From: a virus
DNA: 64,000 nt
Virus record (IMG/VR): IMGVR_UViG_3300037423_001503
Reading direction: 5' to 3' (one strand)
The notes beneath the pieces are model-generated. The model was not told where the DNA came from. It did not search any database and saw only the letters and a list, made by a program, of their open reading frames with translations. The translations under genes and the position numbers were made by a program. Below, one piece after another: positions 4,158 to 45,217 of this stretch. How positions within the stretch are numbered: the first letter of the stretch is position 1; the number at the start of each line of letters is the position of its first letter.

Positions 4158-4385
4158 ATGGACGAGTTCGTCTTCGACGCTTGGAAATTTGAGAAAGTGT
4201 GGCTGCCGGCGTTGCTGTCGGAGGCGTTCTCGATCTCGCGCAACCAGGCACGAAAGATCATTGAGCAGCGCGGCCTGCGCATCGACGGCAAGGTGTGGGA
4301 GTTCATGGACTGCGGCGTCATCGACATCGATGGCCGCGTAGTCCAGATCGGTAAGAAGCGCTTCATCAGACCGAGGTACACATGA
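4158..4385 (+). CDS. Stand-alone S4 RNA-binding domain resembling the TyrRS C-terminal domain
   Basis: LPALLSEAFSISRNQARKIIEQRGLRIDG...VVQIGKKRF matches the TyrRS S4 pattern SxSEARRLIxQGGVxxDG...LQxGKRxF. Confidence 0.75.
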   Translation: MDEFVFDAWKFEKVWLPALLSEAFSISRNQARKIIEQRGLRIDGKVWEFMDCGVIDIDGRVVQIGKKRFIRPRYT

Positions 4386-9351: not shown

Positions 9352-9630
9352 TGCGCCACAGAATCATCCAGATCATTGCTGTTCTGATCATGGTGGCGGC
9401 CTTCCTCATCGTCGCCGGAACCGGCGTCTACACCGCAATCCACTAAGTATGACTGAGTACGTCGAGTACTCGTCAGCGGACGTAAACCTCACCGCCGCCC
9501 TGAGCGTAGCCCTACACGGCGATCCGCGAGACGAACAACGTCTGCGCCGTCCGTCGGTGCGCCTTTGGCGGTGCTGGTTCTGTAAGAGCAACAGAGACGG
9601 CCACGTGCGATGTGGCTGTCTACCCGATTG

Positions 9631-9726
9631 CTAGCTTACTAGCGCTGCAAGTGCTTCAAGAGCGCACACGACGGCCAAGTAGATGGCTAGCGGCCGATGG
9701 CTCTTGAGGTAGCTCTTCTTGATCAT
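9631..9726 (-). CDS. 31-aa single-TM peptide
   Basis: MIKKSYLKSHRPLAIYLAVVCALEALAALVS; ATGA overlap with the 9723-9893 ORF. Confidence 0.45.
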   Translation of the reverse strand: MIKKSYLKSHRPLAIYLAVVCALEALAALVS

Positions 9727-9893
9727 TCGTCGTCCCCATCGCCGGGCGGCTTCAAGAAAACCGGCAACCCCATCATTGCCCCGAACAGAAGAATCAGTGT
9801 CGGTCGTTCCTGGCCCGAGAATGTCTCGTGCATGAATCCCGTCATTCCGCCCAGGAACAGCATCACGTCTCGCAGCACTGGCCATCTGTTCAT
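9723..9893 (-). CDS. 56-aa two-TM membrane protein (not in the ORF track)
   Basis: Hand translation: MNRWPVLRDVMLFLGGMTGFMHETFSGQERPTLILLFGAMMGLPVFLKPPGDGDDE. Confidence 0.6.
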   Translation of the reverse strand: MNRWPVLRDVMLFLGGMTGFMHETFSGQERPTLILLFGAMMGLPVFLKPPGDGDDE

Positions 9894-10004
9894 GTCTCAT
9901 AGGTCGCGTATTCGGCGGGTCGGTCGAGGTCCGTCACAAGGCCTAAATAGTATCAGCGAGGTCGGCACCAAGACCTTCGGTCCAGTAATTAGGAAAGGAA
10001 TCCA

Positions 10005-27718: not shown

Positions 27719-28063
27719 ATGGGCTCTGAATCCTTTTTCCCTATCGGCACACGCCTCACCCACATCGAGACCAAGGAGGTCTTGATCGTCACCGGCGGCG
27801 GCGACCAGTTGGTTGTCTCTCCGGCTGAATTCGGCCCGCCGCGCGCTCTCGGAATCGTCGAGGCGCGGCAGGACTACACCGCAGAAATCCCTGAGGGCGG
27901 TGTCGTCGACACGCCTGAGCAGCAGCGCGCGAAGCTCACCCCTGAGCAGATCTTCGCCAAGGCCGCCGCTGAGGCAGCCGCCGCTGGCGTCGAACCTACC
28001 GGTCACCGCGGACGTAGGAAGTCGCAGGGTGACGCTGAGCCGCGTCGTCAGGGCGGCGAGTAA
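27719..28063 (+). CDS. Hypothetical protein
   Basis: GG-TACACT-N7-ATG leaderless-like start. Confidence 0.6.
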   Translation: MGSESFFPIGTRLTHIETKEVLIVTGGGDQLVVSPAEFGPPRALGIVEARQDYTAEIPEGGVVDTPEQQRAKLTPEQIFAKAAAEAAAAGVEPTGHRGRRKSQGDAEPRRQGGE

Positions 28064-28356
28064 TGGCTAAGCGCTCGCTGGAATCCAAGAAGCGCGCACG
28101 CCTCGTGCGAGCGATGTCAACCACACCGACTGGTCTCATTGATCTCGTCGACTACATCAGGTTGCGCACACGCTGCACCGCTGGTCGCGCCAAGGCCGCC
28201 ATCATGGCCGGCGCGCTGACCGTCGATGGTGAGCCGATCGGCTTCGTCGAGATCGACGACAAGATCCAGAAGGACAATAAGATCAAGGTGTTCACGCAGT
28301 ACGTGCGTGCAGATCTACGCGACCGGATTGTGGTGGTGAATCCTTCTGATTCGTAA
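28063..28356 (+). CDS. S4-like RNA-binding protein
   Basis: IDLVDYIRLRTRCTAGRAKAAIMAGALTVDG; basic N-terminus. Confidence 0.5.
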   Translation: MAKRSLESKKRARLVRAMSTTPTGLIDLVDYIRLRTRCTAGRAKAAIMAGALTVDGEPIGFVEIDDKIQKDNKIKVFTQYVRADLRDRIVVVNPSDS

Positions 28357-33143: not shown

Positions 33144-33172
33144 TTGACTCGGAGTGGCCGCGCTGCTAGCCT
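33144..33172 (+). promoter_or_regulatory. SigA-type promoter, leaderless
   Basis: TTGACT-N17-TAGCCT with TG extension, N8 to GTG 33181. Confidence 0.6.
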
Positions 33173-33180
33173 TCTCGGCC

Positions 33181-33501
33181 GTGAACGAGAACCCCTGCAC
33201 CGACTGGCTTACCGGTCCATTCAGCGCCTACCCAGGCGACCGTGAACTTCTCGACCGCCTCGGTCTCAAGACCTACGGCTACCCATTCTCAGAGTTGATG
33301 AAGCTGGGTCAGGTGGTCTTCGACAACGAGGCCAAGGTTGACGTCTTCGTACTTGCGCTGCCGGCGCAGTCATGGAACTTCGTCATCACGCGTCCGGACG
33401 AGGAGAGCTTCAAGCTCTCGACCGGGACTGGTAAGTTCACGGAGTTCTGGCCGATGGCTGCGATGCTGGCCACCAACTGCGTCTCCGTGAGTAGGTTGTG
33501 A
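33181..33501 (+). CDS. Hypothetical protein
   Basis: Start lies behind the 33144 promoter. Confidence 0.55.
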   Translation: MNENPCTDWLTGPFSAYPGDRELLDRLGLKTYGYPFSELMKLGQVVFDNEAKVDVFVLALPAQSWNFVITRPDEESFKLSTGTGKFTEFWPMAAMLATNCVSVSRL

Positions 33502-35057: not shown

Positions 35058-36197
35058 ATGACCAGAACTGATCCCGCAGTCTTCAACCTACCCGTCGACA
35101 AGCTCCGCGAGGGCTACTACGCCGACGCGTACTTCAACCGCGCCCGTGAACTCCTGATCGCCAACGGGCGTCATCCTCGCGTCGTGATGCAGGTCTTCCA
35201 GCGAGAGCACAGCTTCGCTGGTGGTGTCGATGAGGCCATCGCGATGCTGAAGCTCGGCGCGGGCGGCTACTACACGTGGAACTCGGCCGGCGACACCATG
35301 GTGAGGGCTCCCGGACCTGGGCGTCCCATCGGTGGCTACTGGAAGGACGGCTTCGAAGACCTCGTCGTCAAGGCGCTTCCCGAGGGCGCAGAGATCTCGC
35401 CGTGGGAGCCGGTGCTTCAGATCGAGGGCGACTACACGCTGTTTGCGCATCTTGAGACCACCATGCTGGGTGTGATGGCGCGCCGCAGCCTCGTCATGCG
35501 TAACGTCAAGGAAGCGATCGCGGCAGCGAACGGTAAGCCGATTTGGTTCTTCCCGGCTCGCCACGACCACTGGGCGGTTCAGACCGGTGACGGAATCGCC
35601 GCGCATCAGGCGGGCATTGAGGGCGTCTCCACTGACGCCGGTGCCTCGTGGTGGGGCGGACGAGGGATGGGGACGATCCCACACGCGCTGATCGCCGCCT
35701 ATGGCGGTGACACCGTCACTGCGGCGCGAGAGTTCGCCCAGCGCTACAAGGACTCCATGAACGTGACCGTGTTGGTGGACTTCCACAACGACTCCGTCCA
35801 TACGGCACTTCAGGTGGCTGAGGAACTTGGCGACGACCTGTGGGGCGTCCGACTCGACACGTCCGGCAATCTCGTCGACTACGAGATCCAGCGCGATCTC
35901 AACTACGGCGAGTACGCACCGACTGGCGTGAACCCAAGGCTCGTTGAGCTTGTCCGGAGAAGGCTTGACGATAACGGGCACGAGAACGTGAAGATCGTCG
36001 TCTCTGGCGGCTTCAAGGCCGCCAAGATCCGCGAGTTCGAGCGCCTCCATGTCCCGGTTGATGCCTATGGTGTGGGAAGCTCACTGATTCGCGGATCCAA
36101 CGACTACACCGCCGACATCGTACGCACCAACGACGCGCAGTGCGCGAAGGTCGGACGATGGGAACGCGACGACTCACGGCTGGAAGTCGTTCGATGA
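35058..36197 (+). CDS. pncB: Nicotinate phosphoribosyltransferase (type II PRTase, NAPRTase/QAPRTase family)
   Basis: YYADAYF, FPARH, GTIPHA, LVDF, GVRLDTS, KIVVSGG, YGVGS. Confidence 0.85.
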   Translation: MTRTDPAVFNLPVDKLREGYYADAYFNRARELLIANGRHPRVVMQVFQREHSFAGGVDEAIAMLKLGAGGYYTWNSAGDTMVRAPGPGRPIGGYWKDGFEDLVVKALPEGAEISPWEPVLQIEGDYTLFAHLETTMLGVMARRSLVMRNVKEAIAAANGKPIWFFPARHDHWAVQTGDGIAAHQAGIEGVSTDAGASWWGGRGMGTIPHALIAAYGGDTVTAAREFAQRYKDSMNVTVLVDFHNDSVHTALQVAEELGDDLWGVRLDTSGNLVDYEIQRDLNYGEYAPTGVNPRLVELVRRRLDDNGHENVKIVVSGGFKAAKIREFERLHVPVDAYGVGSSLIRGSNDYTADIVRTNDAQCAKVGRWERDDSRLEVVR

Positions 36198-36376: not shown

Positions 36377-37159
36377 ATGGGTCGAGTTGAGCGCGACCGC
36401 CTTGGCGCGCGCATGAAGGAGTACGAGGCGCAGTGCAGGTTCGTGCTGCCACGCCGCACCTACACGATCCTGCGTCTCGACGGGCGCGCGTTCCACTCCT
36501 GGACCAAGGGTCTCAATCGTCCCTACGACGAAACCATGCTGACCGCGATGGCTGCGACGTCGAAGAAGCTTTGCTCGGAGATCTCGGGCGCTGTGTTCGC
36601 GTACACGCAGAGCGACGAGATCAGCATCCTCGTTCAGGACTTCGCATCGCCGGATACGCAGCCCTGGTTTGGCGGCGTGGTGCAGAAGCTGGCTAGCGTC
36701 TCAGCGTCGGTCGCTACGGCCGAGTTCAACTCCTACTGGGAACGCCCGCCGGCCTATTTCGACGCGCGCTGCTTCACCATCGAACAGGCCGTTGAGGTTG
36801 CCAACTACTTCGTGTGGCGGCAGAAGGACGCGCGCCGCAACGCCATCAGCATGATCGCCGAGCAGCACTGGTCGGCGAACGAGCTTCACGGACGCCCAAC
36901 TTCGGCGCGCCGCGAGATGCTCGAAGCTCAAGGCCTGGACCTTGATCGAGAGGACCAGCGCTTCATGATGGGCCAGGTCGTGTACCCGGTTACGGTTTTC
37001 GAGTCGGTCGTCTACACCGACAAGCGCACCGGTGAGGAGTGCCGAACGCCTATGGTCGAACGACGCGTGCTCGATACGATCCCAGCGCCTGAGTTCCGCG
37101 CCGACCAGGGCTGGCTTGTCGAGCAGATCCACAACATTCCCGACGCTGTGGCTGCGTAA
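36377..37159 (+). CDS. thg1: tRNA(His) guanylyltransferase / Thg1-like 3'-5' polymerase
   Basis: RMKEYE, RLDGRAFH, YTQSDEIS, FDAR, YFVWRQKDA.RN. Confidence 0.92.
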   Translation: MGRVERDRLGARMKEYEAQCRFVLPRRTYTILRLDGRAFHSWTKGLNRPYDETMLTAMAATSKKLCSEISGAVFAYTQSDEISILVQDFASPDTQPWFGGVVQKLASVSASVATAEFNSYWERPPAYFDARCFTIEQAVEVANYFVWRQKDARRNAISMIAEQHWSANELHGRPTSARREMLEAQGLDLDREDQRFMMGQVVYPVTVFESVVYTDKRTGEECRTPMVERRVLDTIPAPEFRADQGWLVEQIHNIPDAVAA

Positions 37160-37423
37160 TGGAAATCCAGGCGCTACTAACGATCGTACTTATTGTGCTT
37201 GCCTACCGAGCCGGACGACGCGACGAACGAGAGGGACGATGAGGTACCCGATCAAGCTCAACGACGGCTACACCTGCCAGGGCTACGACGCCGACGGACG
37301 ATACATCGTGTTCGACGACTTGCTCGGCGAGGGCGAACGTGTAGGACCGTCTGACGGCGAAGGCAACGTACACGTGAATGCATACGTCGTGCGACGCGAG
37401 GACGGCCTGTGGGTGGAGGCGCT

Positions 37424-37831
37424 GTGAGCTTCACGGTGATGATCGCAGTGCATCGCGACGTACTGCCGCCCGTTCTGGGTATGCGTCACCTAGTTGGTAT
37501 CAACCTGCGCGGCGGTTACGACGCCGTTCTGGAGTTCGACAATCCGGTCTCCTTCGAGGGCACGGTCGATGAGGTTCGCCAAAGGACACGTAGTCACGTG
37601 TTTAGCGCGGCGCACTCGCACAACGGGTTCCGTGACGCCGCCATGCTGCGGTACACACCGTTCAAGACCGGCACCGAGTGGGGACAAGCTCGCGTCGCAG
37701 CGATACCAGAGGACCGACGCTGCGAGAAGTGCGCCGGTACAGGCAATGATGTCATTCTGGCCTCCAACGGTGGCGTCGGTGAAGTCGTAATCTGTTGGCC
37801 ATGTGAAGGCACTGGAAGGAAGAAGGCATGA
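37424..37831 (+). CDS. Hypothetical protein with a DnaJ-like Zn finger
   Basis: CEKCAGTG...CWPCEGTG. Confidence 0.55.
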   Translation: MSFTVMIAVHRDVLPPVLGMRHLVGINLRGGYDAVLEFDNPVSFEGTVDEVRQRTRSHVFSAAHSHNGFRDAAMLRYTPFKTGTEWGQARVAAIPEDRRCEKCAGTGNDVILASNGGVGEVVICWPCEGTGRKKA

Positions 37832-38091
37832 CTCTCTACGAGGCGATGCAGGTGTTGGTGCGATTCCATTCTTGGGATTTCGGTGACCGCGGACACGGCT
37901 TGTGCGATCAGACGTTGCGCGCCGAGCTTGCTCAACTAATCGACGCGGCAGACCTCGCCGACGTGCGCGTGACGCTCGGACGGTTCGTTCGCGAAGAGTT
38001 CCTGAGCGAAGATGCTCTCGACGCAGGCTACGGGCCTGAGGACGCGCTGGATTTCCTGAATTGGTTCTGCGCAGGAGATTTCCGACCGTGA
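37828..38091 (+). CDS. Hypothetical protein
   Basis: ATGA coupling. Confidence 0.5.
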   Translation: MTLYEAMQVLVRFHSWDFGDRGHGLCDQTLRAELAQLIDAADLADVRVTLGRFVREEFLSEDALDAGYGPEDALDFLNWFCAGDFRP

Positions 38092-39230
38092 GCATTTCTC
38101 ATCAGGAGACACTCGACGAGATCAAGTACAACGACCCCCTGATCGAGATCAACCAGAGGTGGTCTATCTGCGACGACGCCGGCTTACCCTACAGGGTCAT
38201 CAGGGTGCTATGTCGACACCCAGATGATGGTAATGACGGACAGCGTCGTTGGGTTTGCGAAGAGCAGCCTGCACACTTGGGGTTCAAGGGAATCGGCGTC
38301 TGGGACGAGTACCAGATCAGAAGGGTGTTCAGGCCGCATGGTTAGCAGGGCTCTGGTGGTGTTGCTTTTTCTGTTTGAGGCCATTGTGCTGGTCGCGACG
38401 GGCTACGTTGCGTTCAATGCTTGGGTCTTCGGAGGCGTCGGGCCTGGTATAGCCGCCACGAGCATCGTCGTTGTCGTGGCTGTTGTGCTCGGCTGGGGGC
38501 TGTGGGAGATTTGGACGAGCTAGGCTCCTGGTACCCAGGGAAGCGTTGCCCGCGCGAGGCCGAGCTTCCCTTGGATCTCATGGTGAGAATGTTGATGGAC
38601 GACCGGCGCATCGTTGCCGGTCGTGTCATGTACACGCCGCTTCAGGTCGCAGCGATCTATGCGAACTACAACCACAAGTACGTCAAGGATGAGGACACGA
38701 GAGACTTGATCCGTCGCCTACTTCAGATCCACGGCCGAGCCGTCGACCGAAACGAACCACTACCAGAGGAGATGGAGCTTTGAAGCTCTTCATCGCTAGA
38801 ACCGTCGTGTATGCGTTCTTCGTCTCAACAGTACTATTCCTGGTCATCGCCCCGATCATCAACCCGCAGGTCCTGATCTGCTACGGGATTGTCGCCTTGC
38901 TGGCCCTGGTTATTTGGGCGCTCGTTACAGTCGAGGACAACGACCGATGAACATCAACGATTGGATCGGACACATCGACGGCCTGCGACGCGAGGACGAA
39001 CTTCTAGCTGTCGGCGAATGGCACGGCTACCTAAGGGAGTTCGGTAGCGGTGGGCCGCTGCGCGGCAACTACGTGCTCGTTCGGTGGCGCACTCCTACCG
39101 TGTTGGTCTCGCACGACGACCCCGACGAGTGCGTCAAGCTGGCGCGGCGCATCGAGCGCGCAGCGATGTGGAAGTACATCGACAACGAGGAGCGCCCCGC
39201 GGTGTGGGCGCAGGAGGCCGAGGATCAGTC

Positions 39231-39668
39231 GTGACCGACTACAGCGACGCCCTCGCGGTTGTCGATGATCTGATCGCGGAGGAGGCCGCGCTGGCCAACA
39301 AGATTTGTGCCGCCGATCCCATAGGCTGGACGCGCCTCGGACTGGGTACGTCGTCTGGGGCTCGACTCCATGCATTTCAGGAGGTCAAGCGGCGGCTCAT
39401 CAGTCACGGCGTCCGCGACCGTGAAGAGGCCTGCATCATCGTCCAGTGGGACGAGGGCTACGGCGAGTGGTTCGCCTATTGCCGCAAGTGCGGCAAGCGA
39501 GTCAGCAACGCCTACGCGCTGCGACACGAAGTCGACGACATGGGTCGCGTCGTCGATTGTGGCGTTGAGTTCAAGCACGTAACCACGCCCTACATTGGCG
39601 CGCTCCGCGAGGAGGTCAAGTCGCTACGCGACGACCTTACCTTCATTGATGTAGACTTTGCATCATGA
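39231..39668 (+). CDS. Hypothetical protein
   Basis: GAGGA SD, GTGA coupling; CRKC. Confidence 0.5.
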   Translation: MTDYSDALAVVDDLIAEEAALANKICAADPIGWTRLGLGTSSGARLHAFQEVKRRLISHGVRDREEACIIVQWDEGYGEWFAYCRKCGKRVSNAYALRHEVDDMGRVVDCGVEFKHVTTPYIGALREEVKSLRDDLTFIDVDFAS

Positions 39669-39824
39669 GCCTCAATCAGCCGCAAGACGACCAGAAGGTG
39701 TGCCCGACCTGTAACGGCACAGGCATGGCGTCGAAGTACGACATGGGTTGGCGCACGCTCATGCACAGCGACGAGTTCGCGCGCAAGGTCACCTGCGTGC
39801 CCTGCGCCGGCACGGGCGTCGTCT

Positions 39825-40151
39825 ATGCGTGAACGAGTCCTCCATCTGACGCGCGATGACTTCAAGTGGGACTATTACCGCGCTAGCGGTAATGGCGGCC
39901 AGAACCGCAACAAGCGCGACACCGCCGTACGGTGCACACATGCGCCCTCTGGTGCGGTCGGCAACGCAGCCGACGAGCGCACACAGGGCAAGAACCGTAA
40001 GCTCGCCTTCAAGCGCTGCACCGACGACCCGAAGTTCCGTCGTTGGCTGGCCATCGAGCACGCCAGAACCCTAGTTGGCCGCGATCGATGGGTCGACCAG
40101 CAGATGCGGCCCGAGAATCTCTTGATCGAGTACGGCCCATTCGATCGTTAG
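39825..40151 (+). CDS. RF-1 domain (GGQ) peptidyl-tRNA hydrolase, ArfB/PrfH-like
   Basis: YRASGNGGQNRNKRDTAVRCTH.PSG...ERTQGKNRKLAFKR. Confidence 0.9.
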   Translation: MRERVLHLTRDDFKWDYYRASGNGGQNRNKRDTAVRCTHAPSGAVGNAADERTQGKNRKLAFKRCTDDPKFRRWLAIEHARTLVGRDRWVDQQMRPENLLIEYGPFDR

Positions 40152-40182
40152 AGCCTCGTCCGCGCACCTCATTTAGGACACA

Positions 40183-40219
40183 AAGAAGCCCTGAAGGCAA
40201 CCACCTTCAGGGCTTTCTT
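40183..40219. terminator. Bidirectional terminator where the two transcription arms converge
   Basis: aagaagccctgaagg-N6-ccttcagggctttctt with A/T-rich flanks on both sides. Confidence 0.8.
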
Positions 40220-40242
40220 ATTGTTGTCTTTTGTTGCCGGCC

Positions 40243-40653
40243 TTAGCCCACGATGAGCTTGCCGATCTGTTCGAGGCTCGTGACCTGCGTGTAGTTCATC
40301 AGCCCCGGCGTGCGCGACGCCTCCATCACGATGTCCTCCGAGTTGCCGTAGGCGTAGCGTACGCGAAACTCGATACCGTCGATGACGAACACGGCCTGGC
40401 GCTTGAGCTTGTTGCCGCCCATGGGCTCATGCCGAAACTTGATGTCGTTGACCTCCGCCGCCGACATGCCTAGCTGCGACTGGAGAAACGTCAGTGCGAA
40501 GTCAACGAGTTCTACGTCCTGACGCTCAAGCTCGCTCTGCTGCAACGTGACCTGTTCCTCGCGCGCGGCGATTGCTCGATCTCGAAGCGAGCGCTTCGCT
40601 CCAATGATCTGGTCGGGCGTGATGTTGGAGAAGTCGAATTCGTCAACGCTCAC
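40243..40653 (-). CDS. Hypothetical protein
   Basis: GAGGA SD then GTG at 40653. Confidence 0.55.
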   Translation of the reverse strand: MSVDEFDFSNITPDQIIGAKRSLRDRAIAAREEQVTLQQSELERQDVELVDFALTFLQSQLGMSAAEVNDIKFRHEPMGGNKLKRQAVFVIDGIEFRVRYAYGNSEDIVMEASRTPGLMNYTQVTSLEQIGKLIVG

Positions 40654-40933
40654 GATGAAGTCCTCGTAGGTCGAAGATCGCAGATTGTGCGATCGTCTGC
40701 TCAGAAAGTCCGATATGCGCGTACTCGCGGTACCCAGCGTCAGCGCAGTTCCAGCAGCGAGGCCCCAACAGAGTCTTCGGGTAGAGCTTACCCCAGAAGA
40801 TGAAATCTGCCGGCGCTGAACAGAAGCGCTTGTTGTATTCAAAGGTTGTCTCCTTTTCGGCGCGACATGTCTCACGCAATGGGACGTACACGACAGCCTT
40901 GGCCGTCACCGCATCGGGAGCAAAACTAGCCAA
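40643..40933 (-). CDS. Hypothetical Cys-containing protein
   Basis: Coupled ORF; FWGKL...GPRCWNC. Confidence 0.5.
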   Translation of the reverse strand: MASFAPDAVTAKAVVYVPLRETCRAEKETTFEYNKRFCSAPADFIFWGKLYPKTLLGPRCWNCADAGYREYAHIGLSEQTIAQSAIFDLRGLHRER

Positions 40934-41225
40934 GTCGAACCCTCTCCTTCCGGCGCCCACACGAACACTTACCAGGGCTTTCCGTGAGCGAGCCCCAACA
41001 ATCCTCGCCTGCTTCGTCGCTGTCCCAGTCAGGGCAGCGAAAGCCATCAACGGGAACCCAGTGCTGGTTCAGGATGTCGAGCATGCGCTTATAGAGGATC
41101 TCCACGACGTTGTGGTCGACGTCATCGTAGTCGATGTCAAGATGTAGATCGCCAGGTCCAGAGATCGCGAAGCTCTTACCGAAATAGCCGCGTCCCGGCA
41201 CATCGAGCAGCTTGAACGCCGCCAT
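40926..41225 (-). CDS. Hypothetical protein
   Basis: TGATG coupling; IDYDDVDH. Confidence 0.55.
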   Translation of the reverse strand: MAAFKLLDVPGRGYFGKSFAISGPGDLHLDIDYDDVDHNVVEILYKRMLDILNQHWVPVDGFRCPDWDSDEAGEDCWGSLTESPGKCSCGRRKERVRLG

Positions 41226-41406
41226 CAGTTGTCCTGTGAGCGTTCGGTCGGGTAGGCGCGCTCGATGATCTCGTGAATCGTGTGGTCGACCTTCGTGTCG
41301 TAGTTGTCGAACAGCCGCTTCGACCGAGGCACCGTATCGTTCTGGTGCTTGATCTCAGCGACCGCCTTACGCACTGTGTCTCCGTCTGGCGTGAAGTTGA
41401 TCTTCA

Positions 41407-42135
41407 TCAGAATCCCATCCTGATTCGATAGACAAGGTGGTTGATTTTACCCATGTCGGGTTCATCGGGAAGCTTGGAGTAGGCGGCTGCGTTGTCGAGA
41501 GTGATCAACATGGCCTCGGCGATGGACTCGACCTTATCGAGATCCTTCTCGGCAACGCCCTTGAGCCACTCAACCTGAAGCGGCTGTAGACGCACCAAGA
41601 CCTCGCCGTGCTTGAGGGCGTGGACGCCGGCCATGAGCAGTCGTAGCGTGTGAAGCTTGAACTTGGTGCGCTTGTGGTGACTCGCGCCGCGAGAACCACC
41701 AGTTCCCTCACGCGCCTTACGAAGCTGCGAAACCGCGTAGCCGCCGTAGGTGTGAACGATGCGCTTCGAGAGGAAGAGCCCGCGGCTATTGATGAGTTGG
41801 CCGCCGGCCGAGTAGGCGTCAATCATCTGGTCATCGGACCACAGCATCTCTAGCGCTGTTGGGTTCGCCTTAGCGGCAAGGCGAGCGAAGTGCGCTAGCT
41901 CGTAGACGACGACGTCTGCGTCTTCGGCGATCGAGTTGAGTTCGAGCGCGTCCTTAGCGCCGCCCAGGGAGAGAACCCTGCGAAGCCCAGCCACGTAGAC
42001 GCCTCGAAAATCGTGATCCGAGTCAGGGTTGTCGGTGCCGTAGGCACGGCTGCCGGTGCGCGAGACGAGCACGAGTTCGCCGTCTGCGGCCTCTGCGTGC
42101 GGCTCGATGAGATCAAAGAAGTCCTCAGTGGTCAT
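41407..42135 (-). CDS. Pol-beta superfamily nucleotidyltransferase (RlaP/YcgL-like)
   Basis: GSRAYGTDNPDSDHDFRGVY...YELAHFARLAAKANPTALEMLWS...YGGYA. Confidence 0.85.
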   Translation of the reverse strand: MTTEDFFDLIEPHAEAADGELVLVSRTGSRAYGTDNPDSDHDFRGVYVAGLRRVLSLGGAKDALELNSIAEDADVVVYELAHFARLAAKANPTALEMLWSDDQMIDAYSAGGQLINSRGLFLSKRIVHTYGGYAVSQLRKAREGTGGSRGASHHKRTKFKLHTLRLLMAGVHALKHGEVLVRLQPLQVEWLKGVAEKDLDKVESIAEAMLITLDNAAAYSKLPDEPDMGKINHLVYRIRMGF

Positions 42136-42781
42136 AGTTCCTTGTAGGTCGTTGGCTGATCAAGCCAGCGTTGATGATCTTCGAGCGCGAGCATACGATC
42201 GCGTAGATTCTGCTCAGCCTCGCCGCGCGTGTAGCCCCAGCCGTAGTAGAGATCGGTTGGCTCGCGTCGCCAGAAGAACAGACCCTTGGTCTCCAGCCAG
42301 GCGTTGTAGCCATGTCCCGTCGCGGGCTCGATGGTGATCCTCTGCATCAGTACTTCCAAAGATCACAGCGGCCCGTCACGAACGTCGCGGCGAACCAGGC
42401 GATGACGTCGCGGCGCTGGCTTACGCGGCTGTAGATCCTGTTCGGCGAGATGCCGCCGAACGGGTACGGCTCGATCTGGTAACGCTCGCCGTCGATGTCT
42501 TCGAAGTAGCGCGAATATTCGTCGAGGCCGTAGCGATTGGGGTTGAAACGCGCTAGCGTTGATCGCAGTCTACGCATCGAATACGAAGCTCGACTCGGTG
42601 ATGATGTCAACTACGACGTCGGCGAGTTGACCTTCGAGGCCCAGGTAGACCTCGTTGCGGAAGGTTTGCGATCCGAAGCTCTGCTCGTCCATAGCCTGCC
42701 CGATCATCTGTGCCGCGCCATAGGCGGCGTCGCGGATGATGTTGTGGAGGCTGTTGGGGATTTCGACTGGCGGCGTCATTA

Positions 42782-43072
42782 TCAGAATCCCATTTCGTCT
42801 AGTGATGGTCTCGGATCCGAGAGCGAGACGATCTCGTCGCCGCTACAGCCCCAGGGTTCGGCGCAGGGCACGTGATGTGGGCATGAGCGAGCAACGCGCT
42901 TCTTGCCTTGTGCCTTGAGCAGCTTGGCCCGCATAGGAGTTTTGCGCGGCTCCATGAAGAGATCGAAGTCGCGCTTACAGTCTGGGCAGAAGTCGCGCTC
43001 GTCTACCTCGTACGATTCGCCTTTGATCTCACGACCGCAACGGTCACACTCAGTGACGTGACGAGTTGCCAT
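42782..43072 (-). CDS. Zn-finger hypothetical protein
   Basis: CDRC...DFCPDC; ATG just after the rtcB stop. Confidence 0.55.
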   Translation of the reverse strand: MATRHVTECDRCGREIKGESYEVDERDFCPDCKRDFDLFMEPRKTPMRAKLLKAQGKKRVARSCPHHVPCAEPWGCSGDEIVSLSDPRPSLDEMGF

Positions 43073-43073
43073 G

Positions 43074-44423
43074 TCAGTCCTTGTACTTGTCGACAACGCC
43101 GCTACCGGCCATGGCGACGCCAATCGGGCGGAGCGAGTGCTTGACTTCGACGTAGTCGGCGTGGGCGGCCAGCACTTCAGGCAATCGCTTGTAGGCCTCG
43201 GGAGCCTCGTCAGCGTCGCCGCCGCGAAGTTCGATGCCCTGTCGGCGCAGGCGCTTCTGGACAGCCTTCCAGTCGACTCGGCCCTCGCGCTCCTGAACCC
43301 ACGTCTTGGACACGTCACCATGCATACACTCGGGGCAGATCGTGAACGACGGCTCGCCGCGTCCCTGTGTGTGCCCGCAGTTGTTACACGTGACGCGCTT
43401 GCGCTGTCGACCCTTGGCCTCTGTGCGCGACATCACACGTCCCGCGCCATGCGGGGCCGACCAGATGGCCTCCTGGCCGGCGGCCCAAGCGAGCAGCCTC
43501 TTACCGGTCGTTACGAGTCCACCATCGCCGAAGCCCTCGATGATGACCGCATTCTCGCCCATCGAGCCGCCAACGAAGCCCTGCTGTCCCGGGTAGAGTG
43601 GCGTCGAGCCCTTGCGGACCACCCAACAATCCACACCATTCACGTTTTCCAACCACGAGAAGTTGTGGTGGTTGTGAACTTCGTGCACAACGGCCGGCGA
43701 TCCCAGGATCTCCAGGACCTTGTCGACCACGACGTCGCGGCCCGCGTACGCGTAGTCGCCTGCGAGGTTCATGGCCTCGATGTAGGTGTAGCCGAGCGGA
43801 GAATCCTTGTGCAGCAGCACGGGCGGCGAGTGCATCTCACCGCCGTCGGCGTGGTCGGCGAACTCCTTGCCTTGTGCGAGCGCGAGGAAGCCGGAAGCGA
43901 TCTTGTGGCCGAAGCCACGCGAGCCGAAGTGGACGCCGATCCAGATGCGATCGGTGCCTTCTTCGGCGAAGAGATCGACGTAGTGGTTGCCGGAGCCGAC
44001 GGTGCCTAGCTGAGCCCGAGCGGTGCCGATGAGATCTCGAACGCCACGCATCGGAGCTTCACGATTGATGCGATCGAAGATCTCGTGGTCGACGGGCTCG
44101 TTGTTCGGACGCCCCATGCCGAAGCTGATGCGGCGCGAGATCTCGTCCATGATCTTCGGTAGATCGGCGCGGATATCGCCGAGGAAGAGGTTTGTCGAGA
44201 CGGCCTTGTTGCCGCAGCCAATGTCGTAGCCCACAGAGGACGGCGAGACGTAGTCCTCATAGGCGATGACACCTCCGATGGGAGCAGAGTAGCCGAGGTG
44301 GTGATCTGCGCAGAGAACGCCAGCGACGGCGTCACCCGCGACCATGCAGGTCTCCATCTGGCGAACCGCGCCCTCATCGGGAGACATCCCATCGGGCGTG
44401 AAGATGGTTAGATTGTCAGACAT
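43074..44423 (-). CDS. rtcB: RtcB RNA ligase with a Zn-ribbon insert
   Basis: DHHLGY, VGYDIGCG, GSGNHY, HFGSRG, NHHN, RKG, HGAGR, DEAPEAYK. Confidence 0.95.
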   Translation of the reverse strand: MSDNLTIFTPDGMSPDEGAVRQMETCMVAGDAVAGVLCADHHLGYSAPIGGVIAYEDYVSPSSVGYDIGCGNKAVSTNLFLGDIRADLPKIMDEISRRISFGMGRPNNEPVDHEIFDRINREAPMRGVRDLIGTARAQLGTVGSGNHYVDLFAEEGTDRIWIGVHFGSRGFGHKIASGFLALAQGKEFADHADGGEMHSPPVLLHKDSPLGYTYIEAMNLAGDYAYAGRDVVVDKVLEILGSPAVVHEVHNHHNFSWLENVNGVDCWVVRKGSTPLYPGQQGFVGGSMGENAVIIEGFGDGGLVTTGKRLLAWAAGQEAIWSAPHGAGRVMSRTEAKGRQRKRVTCNNCGHTQGRGEPSFTICPECMHGDVSKTWVQEREGRVDWKAVQKRLRRQGIELRGGDADEAPEAYKRLPEVLAAHADYVEVKHSLRPIGVAMAGSGVVDKYKD

Positions 44424-44460
44424 CGTGGCCTCCGAGTTGCGTTTCGAGGTTGATGAAGCT

Positions 44461-44633
44461 GTGCCGGTTCAGGGAGAACTCGTTGTGCGCCCGTACGCTC
44501 TTCCCCGCATTACCGCGCCTACGACCAGCGTAACGATGCCTTGGCCAGGCAGGATGCGCGTTGTGGGAGTGGCTCGTGTCCCACGGCCTCCGCGGCGGCC
44601 ATTGTGGGCTCGACGAGTTCTCTGCACCGCCAC
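44461..44633 (-). ncRNA. Candidate ~170-nt structured RNA upstream of rtcB
   Basis: Long closing helix incl. GAGAACTCGT/ACGAGTTCTC enclosing several hairpins; no convincing ORF. Confidence 0.5.
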
Positions 44634-44676
44634 TATCCGACTCGTGATCAGCGAGTCAGCCAAACTTTGAAGATTG

Positions 44677-44801
44677 TTCCGTCGGAGGGGATCGAACCCT
44701 CTACCCTAGCAGCCGCTAGCAGGCTGATCGTCGGGTTATCGGCCCACTACTCGACACCCGGGTTCGCGACCCGCAGACGCCTTTCGCTTCCGATCGACGG
44801 C
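44677..44801 (-). ncRNA. Candidate ~125-nt tRNA-like RNA (acceptor stem + T-arm, expanded interior)
   Basis: (G)CCGTCG...CGACGG(A)ACAA ends; T-arm GAGGG-TTCGATC-CCCTC; predicted TSS coincides with the 5' end. Confidence 0.6.
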
Positions 44802-44807
44802 CTGAGA

Positions 44808-44837
44808 AGCTTAGCAGCTACTCGTCGTCTTCGTCAA
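44808..44837 (-). promoter_or_regulatory. SigA-type promoter for the tRNA-like RNA / rtcB unit
   Basis: TTGACG-N18-TAAGCT with TG extension; +1 at about 44801. Confidence 0.65.
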
Positions 44838-45192
44838 CCGGAAGCGAGGCGATGCGCTCAACATAGCGTTCCTGCTCGGCGATGAGGCCGTCTCGGAACC
44901 CGACCAAGGCGTCGATCATCGTGTTGACCTTGTAGAGGTCGTTGGCGCGTGCGTCAGCGTCGGCAATATCGAAGTCGAACGAGACGCTGCGCGTGCAGTC
45001 GGCGATCTGGAGCACCATGTGTGGTCGGGCGTTCCAGCGTTCGAGCTTCTCGTCCTCGGCGTTCTTGCCGGCCTTCCAGCGAGAGGTGTCTTCGATTTCG
45101 GCGACGATCGCGCCTGTCGAGTGGTGGCCGGGCAGGTTGAGCATTGCGCGCCCGCCGTGGTAGCGGCGGCGCTGTCGTGGGCGTCGAGCCAT
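44818..45192 (-). CDS. Hypothetical protein
   Basis: Extended -10 TGcTACTCT-N6-ATG; LQIADCTRSV motif. Confidence 0.65.
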   Translation of the reverse strand: MARRPRQRRRYHGGRAMLNLPGHHSTGAIVAEIEDTSRWKAGKNAEDEKLERWNARPHMVLQIADCTRSVSFDFDIADADARANDLYKVNTMIDALVGFRDGLIAEQERYVERIASLPVDEDDE

Positions 45193-45217
45193 CGACGAAG
45201 AGTAGCAGAACGACAAA

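Follow-up and report, generated by a model that had tools for sequence, protein, structure and literature searches.

The region considered here, positions 36377 to 44801 of a 64,000-nucleotide stretch of viral DNA (the window, from IMG/VR virus record IMGVR_UViG_3300037423_001503), carries genes for a Thg1-like protein (TLP), a stand-alone GGQ protein, an RlaP-family nucleotidyltransferase and the RNA ligase RtcB, together with two candidate structured RNAs. We interpret it as an accessory-gene zone in which two convergent transcription units meet, and in which separately acquired parts make up a modular toolkit for RNA repair and translation rescue; the probability of this interpretation is put at roughly 0.6. 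An earlier, sequence-only reading saw in the same genes a coordinated counter-defence against host systems that cleave tRNA and rRNA, with dedicated RNAs as its unusual component. The identities of the enzymes and their interpretation as a toolkit fit the biochemistry of the families and the comparative genomics in print (PMC7824862; PMC6514570; bioRxiv 10.64898/2025.12.29.696909), but the genes do not form one unit.

All four protein assignments made in that reading hold. The Pfam families PF01139, PF00472, PF04446 and PF10127 were each matched with scores well over their cut-offs (Table 1), and the catalytic motifs are intact. In RtcB, the metal-binding and nucleophilic-histidine motifs DxH, GYDIGCG, GSGNH, HFGSRGFGH and PHGAGR align with those of the P. 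horikoshii enzyme (4DWR). A zinc-ribbon insertion of 49 residues (approximately residues 340–388, CNNC...CPEC), unaligned to the P. horikoshii protein, separates the HGAGR motif from the C-terminal segment, and the similar lengths of the RtcB proteins of the clade suggest that it is a clade-wide feature. The RlaP-family protein has the Pol-β motifs GSRAYG...DSDHD (GS...DxD), and its gene follows rtcB on the same strand at a distance of 0.94 kb, in the proximity to an RNA ligase that is expected of the family; a search of solved structures by sequence gave no match to it at E ≤ 0.001. For the TLP, the tRNA-His-specific eukaryotic type of Thg1 was considered and rejected: HINNLYN is the motif by which that type recognizes the anticodon, the phage protein has RRNAISM at this position, and the structures of Candida, human and other Thg1 enzymes are matched at only 35–42 bits. 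Its top solved relative, at 145.6 bits, is the bacterial TLP of Bacillus thuringiensis (4KGK; PMC3701042), with which the catalytic RLDG and SDE carboxylate motifs align.

The GGQ motif of the fourth protein is invariant in 37 homologues, and an AlphaFold model that draws on them (predicted local distance difference test score 87) consists of a bare GGQ domain followed by a single long helix. The fold was matched by Foldseek best to domain 3 of RF2/RF1, with a probability of 1.00, and also to PrfH. In ArfB, a linker joins the GGQ domain to a basic C-terminal helix, with which the protein senses an mRNA channel that is empty; this family was rejected, as its profile (NF006718) gives 35.4 bits against a cut-off of 100, over residues 5–36 only, and the C terminus of the phage protein (…MRPENLLIEYGPFDR) is not basic. 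Nor can the association of RtcB with a PrfH-type factor, on which the sequence-only reading had drawn, be sustained for either protein. The PrfH profile (TIGR03072) scores 54.8 bits against 166.65 and is covered only at positions 102–160 of 200, the phage protein having 108 residues where PrfH has around 200, and no decoding-centre domain. PrfH-associated RtcB (RtcB2; TIGR03073) scores 63.2 bits against 271.8, and the GGQ gene adjacent to the phage rtcB is convergent with it and does not encode PrfH. Rescue and repair by PrfH and RtcB is established in bacteria (PMC9304027, PMC6514570), but with both proteins outside these families the mechanism is therefore not simply transferable to the phage.

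The genes are laid out not as a single operon but as two convergent transcription units, with the Thg1-like and GGQ genes on the plus strand and rtcB and rlaP on the minus strand. The point of convergence noticed earlier is marked by a bidirectional terminator hairpin. The promoter of rtcB is conserved in type: TTGAC-N16–18-TGCTAnnnT is found 5′ of rtcB also in the nearest relative of the phage (G001, described below) and in the lineages L193, L197 and L198. The looser pattern TTGAC-N14–20-TGCTA has only two matches in the window, against 0.37 expected by chance. One is the rtcB promoter, and the other is a site on the plus strand, 3′ of which the sequence TTCTC.GGCCGT resembles the initial transcribed sequence of the rtcB promoter. 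Its overlap with the called start of an open reading frame (ORF) makes the status of this second site as a promoter uncertain. If the site is real, the whole 11.7-kb zone would consist of two convergent units served by one promoter class.

The window belongs to a 79-kb contig (G000; CheckV completeness 56%, GC content 61%) with products that include a tape-measure protein, major capsid protein, prohead protease, large terminase, DNA polymerase A and helicase. Because contigs as long as 140.6 kb carry an identical copy of its RtcB, and because G001 is a complete IMG/VR genome of 139.9 kb whose arrays contain at least 26 tRNA genes, the source is, as judged from these sequences, a tRNA-rich, siphovirus-like soil phage of about 140 kb. 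The nearest cellular homologues of RtcB are those of Conexibacter and Solirubrobacterales, and the capsid protein is distantly mycobacteriophage-like; the hosts of the phage clade are probably actinobacteria.

Comparison with related phages provides the evidence on how the zone was put together. A search of 5.8 billion proteins returned many relatives of RtcB at 60–74% identity, and the contigs of eight clusters were read. In about ten lineages rtcB follows the lysis cassette, an arrangement with which all contigs read that have tail or lysis genes agree, and in 8 of 10 lineages a peptidyl-tRNA hydrolase is encoded within 10 kb of RtcB. Six lineages (the window, G001, L184/185, L196, L186–189 and L198) have the GGQ mini-protein and a phosphoribosyltransferase on the opposing arm. 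In L193 and L197, the GGQ protein and RlaP are replaced by PTH2 on the opposing arm and a PF09414 RNA ligase just 3′ of rtcB, respectively, and in L194/195 RtcB is found with a 1094-residue enzyme of the CCA-adding type and a P-loop kinase. PTH2 is unrelated to the GGQ protein, and its substitution for the latter is the best argument available that ligase and peptidyl-tRNA hydrolase activities have been selected in combination, as these patterns suggest.

The individual parts differ in depth. The proteins of G001 are 85% (RtcB), 92% (RlaP) and 86% (GGQ) identical to those of the window, and the two phages have in common a gene for salvage of nicotinamide adenine dinucleotide (NAD) and nearly all of the small ORFs. 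The Thg1-like gene is absent from G001, where its slot is occupied by unrelated sequence, and from four other RtcB phages, and is present only in the lineage of this phage; among the surveyed lineages, only the window and G001 have RlaP. In other phages, the GGQ family occurs without RtcB. Lying on two strands, and with RtcB and the peptidyl-tRNA hydrolase old in the clade, RlaP recent and Thg1 strain-unique, the set is, on this comparative evidence, not one coordinated unit.

A number of observations weigh against the interpretation of the zone as a toolkit. The cases of co-occurrence are not independent, because related phages share ancestry and gene order. The GGQ mini-family is found in the genome of the Cluster C mycobacteriophage Catera (gp202, 46% identical), which is without RtcB, and on three further phage contigs with no ligase within 10 kb. 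Among 22 more distant loci of the RtcB clade (at least 8 kb each), RlaP and a GGQ domain are each encountered at one. The four genes of the window are distributed over two strands with approximately 20 small ORFs of no assigned role between them, and a bare GGQ domain has no evident means of recognizing a stalled ribosome. The GGQ case among these loci, in L143 next to a 49%-identical RtcB, is a 329-residue ORF rather than a mini-protein and was not taken as support for the toolkit.

It might accordingly be asked whether the genes are chance neighbours, that is, independent accessory genes at the arm ends of a plastic zone, brought close by tolerance of insertion and by shared synteny. Their unequal evolutionary depth, the turnover of the small intervening ORFs, the unrelated NAD-salvage gene in the same zone and the occurrence of the GGQ mini-family elsewhere without RtcB would all be explained in this way. 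The exchanges of PTH2 for GGQ and of an Rnl-type ligase for RlaP in sister phages that keep RtcB would not, since they suggest selection for the combined activities, and in phages RlaP and RNA ligases have matching distributions (PMC7824862). We regard chance neighbourhood as rather unlikely, though deserving of serious consideration.

For a toolkit of this kind, substrates, cooperation between the parts and a purpose in counter-defence can be proposed from the biochemistry of the families. RtcB would reseal tRNA or rRNA that host ribotoxins, for example anticodon nucleases, had cut to leave 2′,3′-cyclic-phosphate and 5′-hydroxyl ends, and RlaP would beforehand restore one or two nucleotides lost on the 3′ side of the break. 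Addition of 1–2 nucleotides to damaged RNA 3′ ends in vitro, with restoration of tRNA function after excess damage, has been reported for RlaP, a biochemistry known only for Pseudomonas enzymes (bioRxiv 10.64898/2025.12.29.696909). The Thg1-like enzyme would rebuild missing 5′ nucleotides of tRNA by templated 3′–5′ addition, or would add G−1 to tRNA-His. The bare GGQ protein would hydrolyse peptidyl-tRNA on ribosomes or large subunits stalled by cut or scarce tRNAs. A role in counter-defence along these lines is plausible.

Two S4 domains and a metallophosphoesterase had also been noted elsewhere in the window. The metallophosphoesterase is genuine and spans the start of the window. One S4 domain (4158–4385, plus strand) is upheld at 28.9 bits, but the other (28063–28356), at 12 bits, is without a Pfam match at E ≤ 0.01. 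The former constitutes a stand-alone protein of 75 residues encoded 35 kb from the GGQ gene. The S4-type proteins Hsp15, RqcP and MTRES1 bind large subunits that carry peptidyl-tRNA, and MTRES1 acts with a GGQ protein; by analogy, the phage S4 protein could be a partner of the bare GGQ protein.

The enzymes might alternatively serve as housekeepers for the tRNAs of the phage itself, the TLP adding G−1 to phage tRNA-His, RlaP and RtcB tidying the ends of tRNAs cut from arrays, and the GGQ protein recycling peptidyl-tRNA during heavy late translation. Bacterial TLPs are able to add G−1 opposite C73, and the tRNA arrays of G001, together with the termination of G000 within such an array, would supply the substrates. 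The contigs of both phages break inside the same repeated tRNA-Leu (G000 79065–79110; L201 893–912; L202 1–41), which leaves the tRNA set of each only partly recovered; the assembled, incomplete arrays of G001 have 26 tRNAs, none of them for His, Arg, Asp or Trp. However, G001 and four other lineages do without Thg1 and most do without RlaP, and the cyclic-phosphate ends on which RtcB acts are products of ribotoxins, not of normal processing by RNase P/Z. Housekeeping is thus an unlikely explanation of the set.

The two RNA candidates lie in the leader of rtcB, a stretch of 394 nucleotides (44424–44817, minus strand) between ORF 44818–45216 and rtcB in which coding periodicity is absent. In candidate 1, a canonical T arm is followed directly by CGACGGA, which pairs at 6 of 7 positions with GCCGTCG at the predicted transcript start. 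Because a census of 158 kb (both strands) found only three spurious T-arm-like motifs, we estimate that chance is unlikely to have brought these motifs together in a spacer of this length and that the element is probably tRNA-derived. The case for the two RNA candidates of the earlier reading ends there, and the remaining evidence does not support it. Rfam has no match in the leader at gathering thresholds, nor at E ≤ 5, and the tRNA model RF00005 fails for 44677–44801; ARAGORN makes no call in the leader at default settings and mutually conflicting calls at relaxed ones; and folding-energy z-scores of −0.65 (candidate 1) and −0.45 (candidate 2) are no different from those of shuffled sequence.

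Nor is the leader conserved. In G001, where the leader measures 91 nucleotides, approximately 312–325 nucleotides of it are replaced by 12; the part that is missing holds the T arm, the acceptor strand on the 3′ side and candidate 2 in its entirety. Nothing similar to the insertion was found by BLAST elsewhere in the complete G001 or in the 79 kb of this phage itself. Exact T-arm/acceptor patterns occur in none of the IMG/VR or GTDB genomes, and blastn against 50,697 phage records gave as its only match 22 nucleotides identical to the tRNA-Asp T arm of a Streptomyces phage; a pattern of 16–17 nucleotides from the leader was unspecific in IMG/VR, with more than 112 chance matches. The earlier proposal that the repair genes are paired with dedicated RNAs is not supported: in G001, RtcB, RlaP and the GGQ protein are all retained and the insertion is missing.

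Only the first 30–44 nucleotides or so of candidate 1 are common to the two phages. They include the supposed 5′ strand of the acceptor and are complementary to the upstream −35 region, with a similar pairing visible by eye in G001, and this pairing could explain their conservation without a tRNA-like partner. In the window, the first 16 nucleotides of the leader (44784–44799) show 88% complementarity with the last part of the upstream ORF (44832–44847), the −35 hexamer included, and in read-through transcripts the rtcB promoter could fold as a hairpin. TTGAC sits in the loop of a terminator-like hairpin in L197 and L198.

Several identities for the leader RNAs were considered and rejected. 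Transfer-messenger RNA, an intron-containing tRNA and an embedded tRNA of normal length are not consistent with the inconsistent relaxed ARAGORN calls, and an 82-nucleotide sub-unit forms no cloverleaf and matches 0 of the 26 G001 tRNAs. An attP-like tRNA 3′ fragment was dismissed because the 22-nucleotide 3′ end is carried by no bacterial genome searched, and a Y-RNA/Ro60 reading because TROVE is matched neither in G000 (56% complete) nor in the complete G001, and because Rfam has no match.

Leaders of rtcB vary in length from 0 to 468 nucleotides across the clade. Those of outgroup phages are either absent (0–18 nucleotides) or long and unrelated to the leader of the window, with middle parts that are unrelated among themselves; none of these leaders has an Rfam match. 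In L198 (RtcB 68% identical), a non-coding stretch of about 300 nucleotides 5′ of rtcB (9590–9960) has an apparent promoter of its own, TTGAC...TGCTACGAT, and an intrinsic terminator, as read from the sequence, with another promoter, that of rtcB, beyond them; the stretch resembles an RNA gene in its own right and has no match in Rfam.

These findings bear on the idea that the RNAs are dedicated partners of the repair enzymes, whether as scaffolds resembling Y RNAs, as decoys for anticodon nucleases or as damage sensors controlling rtcB. It draws on the position of the canonical T arm, next to a pairing that resembles an acceptor stem at the point where the transcript is predicted to begin, on the long unrelated leaders or RNA gene 5′ of rtcB in several relatives, and on the coincidence that the insertion and the Thg1-like gene are both strain-unique. 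The Salmonella rsr-yrlBA-rtcBA operon likewise has Y RNAs, which contain tRNA-like domains, upstream of rtcB. The idea is nonetheless improbable given that the T arm and candidate 2 are missing from the nearest relative, where the acceptor 5′ strand is kept without its partner and pairs with the −35 region instead, that no homologue exists in IMG/VR, the GTDB genomes or the phage collection, that Rfam and ARAGORN give no support and the folding energies are not significant, that neither G000 nor G001 has a Ro60/TROVE gene, and that the leaders of the relatives are not homologous. The most economical reading of the comparisons takes the rtcB leader to be a site of rapid change, its content in this strain being a recent strain-specific insertion and not a conserved component of the toolkit.

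A more speculative idea, to which we attach very little likelihood, is that the strain-specific leader is a working cis-element. Cleavage of the tRNA-shaped 5′ module and the 200-nucleotide structured RNA, by anticodon nucleases or the tRNA-processing enzymes of the host, would couple production of RtcB to tRNA damage or release a decoy; the element would have been gained in the lineage that acquired the Thg1-like enzyme. The hypervariable, mutually unrelated leaders of the clade, including the one served by a separate promoter and terminator, would then represent a fast-evolving family of regulatory or decoy RNAs on the repair ligase.

Table 1. Features of the convergent zone and the corresponding loci of two sister phages. 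Positions are those of the window unless a lineage is named.
Feature	Position	Strand	Remarks
Promoter-like site TTGAC-N15-TGCTAGCCT	33144–33172	+	faces inwards to the arm ending with the GGQ gene; overlaps called start of ORF 33154–33501
Nicotinate/nicotinamide phosphoribosyltransferase-like gene (NAD salvage)	35058–36197	+	NF005529, 320.7 bits, under the 378-bit cut-off; PF02749, 41 bits
Thg1-like protein (TLP), bacterial type, 3′–5′ nucleotidyl transferase	36377–37159	+	PF04446, 102 bits (cut-off 29.2)
Stand-alone GGQ (RF-1 domain) protein of peptidyl-tRNA hydrolase type, 108 residues	39825–40151	+	PF00472, 61.6 bits (cut-off 35); terminal gene of the plus arm
Bidirectional intrinsic terminator	40185–40216		13-bp stem, T-rich tails on either strand; weak hairpin-only match to sar RNA
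RlaP-family Pol-β nucleotidyltransferase	41407–42135	-	PF10127, 107.6 bits (cut-off 23)
Zinc-ribbon protein, 96 residues	42782–43072	-	CxxC...CxxC, basic stretch; weak zinc-ribbon Pfam matches; immediately downstream of rtcB
RtcB 3′-phosphate/5′-hydroxyl RNA ligase	43074–44423	-	PF01139, 196.4 bits (cut-off 27)
RNA candidate 2, structured part of rtcB leader	44461–44660	-	inverted repeat; closing helix 10–15 bp; wholly within lineage-specific insertion
RNA candidate 1, tRNA-like element	44677–44801	-	perfect T arm GAGGG-TTCGATC-CCCTC; acceptor-like 6/7 pairing
rtcB promoter TTGACG-N16-TGCTAAGCT	44808–44837	-	extended −10 type; conserved in G001
PF09414 RNA ligase / PTH2 loci of L193	11589–12224 and 15108–15533		
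PF09414 RNA ligase / PTH2 loci of L197	11316–11942 and 15787–16341		

Of the neighbouring genes, that for NAD salvage travels with the GGQ gene in five further lineages, and QRPTase_N adjoins the RF-1 genes of L184, L186, L196 and L198. It is a possible counter-defence gene that would replenish NAD+, by analogy with the NARP pathways (bioRxiv 10.1101/2024.02.11.579819). The 96-residue zinc-ribbon protein encoded next to RtcB is 81% identical to its counterpart in G001. A conserved small partner protein 3′ of rtcB was considered and rejected, as the small downstream ORFs of seven lineages are not homologous. At 40243–40933 (minus strand), a 210-residue ORF (40243–40875) competes with a public call of two genes, of 136 and 96 residues, in different frames, and the periodicity of GC at third codon positions favours the split. 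Neither ORF 40243–40875 nor ORF 39084–39668 has a match in Pfam, PHROGs, NCBIfam or the ESM Atlas. On the plus strand, a cysteine-rich ORF of 55 residues (39665–39832) overlaps the start of the GGQ gene and has a weak PHROG match to Q-like antiterminators, and another cysteine-rich ORF, of 140 residues (37409–37831), has a sub-threshold match to the DnaJ CXXCXGXG zinc finger.

Comparison with known systems places the individual parts of the toolkit. The arrangement at the rtcB leader is reminiscent of the Salmonella rsr-yrlBA-rtcBA operon in that two structured RNAs, one of them tRNA-like, stand directly 5′ of rtcB. Unlike that operon, the phage lacks Ro60/TROVE (G000 and G001) and any Rfam Y-RNA match, the ends of its RNA lie in an acceptor-like stem and not in a Ro-binding stem, and the element is not conserved in the nearest relative. 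The rtcB-rlaP-rtcA operon of Pseudomonas (Carruthers, Fatma and Huang, bioRxiv 10.64898/2025.12.29.696909) also has rlaP downstream of rtcB on the same strand and encodes the same Pol-β GS/DxD motifs, whereas the phage is without RtcA or RtcR and has four small genes between rtcB and rlaP.

The GGQ protein has its closest described likeness in the ‘RF-1 domain peptide chain release factor’ of Cluster C mycobacteriophages (Catera gp202, NC_008207.1), which is similarly stand-alone and 46–47% identical over 108 residues, but is encoded between the DNA polymerase and UvsX genes. With the PrfH-RtcB2 pair (PMC9304027, PMC9223846, PMC1586002) the phage shares genes for a GGQ protein and an RtcB ligase no more than 3 kb apart, and the proposed order of peptide release followed by RNA ligation. 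It differs in the shorter GGQ protein without the decoding-centre domain of PrfH and in the convergent genes, which form no operon. Annotated copies of the bare GGQ mini-protein are known from hundreds of actinophages, and experiments would be most usefully directed at this protein.

The nearest precedent for the set as a whole is the RNA-repair repertoire of jumbo phages, which includes RtcB or Rnl ligases, RlaP, CCA-adding enzyme, Thg1 and peptidyl-tRNA hydrolases (Iyer et al. 2021, PMC7824862; Burroughs and Aravind 2016, cited there). The families are the same, as is the proposed logic of healing ends, ligating them and releasing the peptide, and in both cases the phage is rich in tRNA genes. 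Here, however, the phage is siphovirus-like and of about 140 kb, a bare GGQ (RF-1) protein stands where jumbo phages have PTH2, and the genes form two convergent units beside the lysis cassette. The toolkit is already described for large phages, and no new kind of system is revealed; rather, the RNA-repair toolkit of jumbo and T4-like phages is extended to a clade of mid-sized, tRNA-rich soil siphoviruses. Within this clade, sister phages that keep RtcB and swap both the hydrolase (GGQ or PTH2) and the end-healing partner (RlaP, Rnl-type ligase or CCA-adding-type enzyme) provide a natural comparison set.

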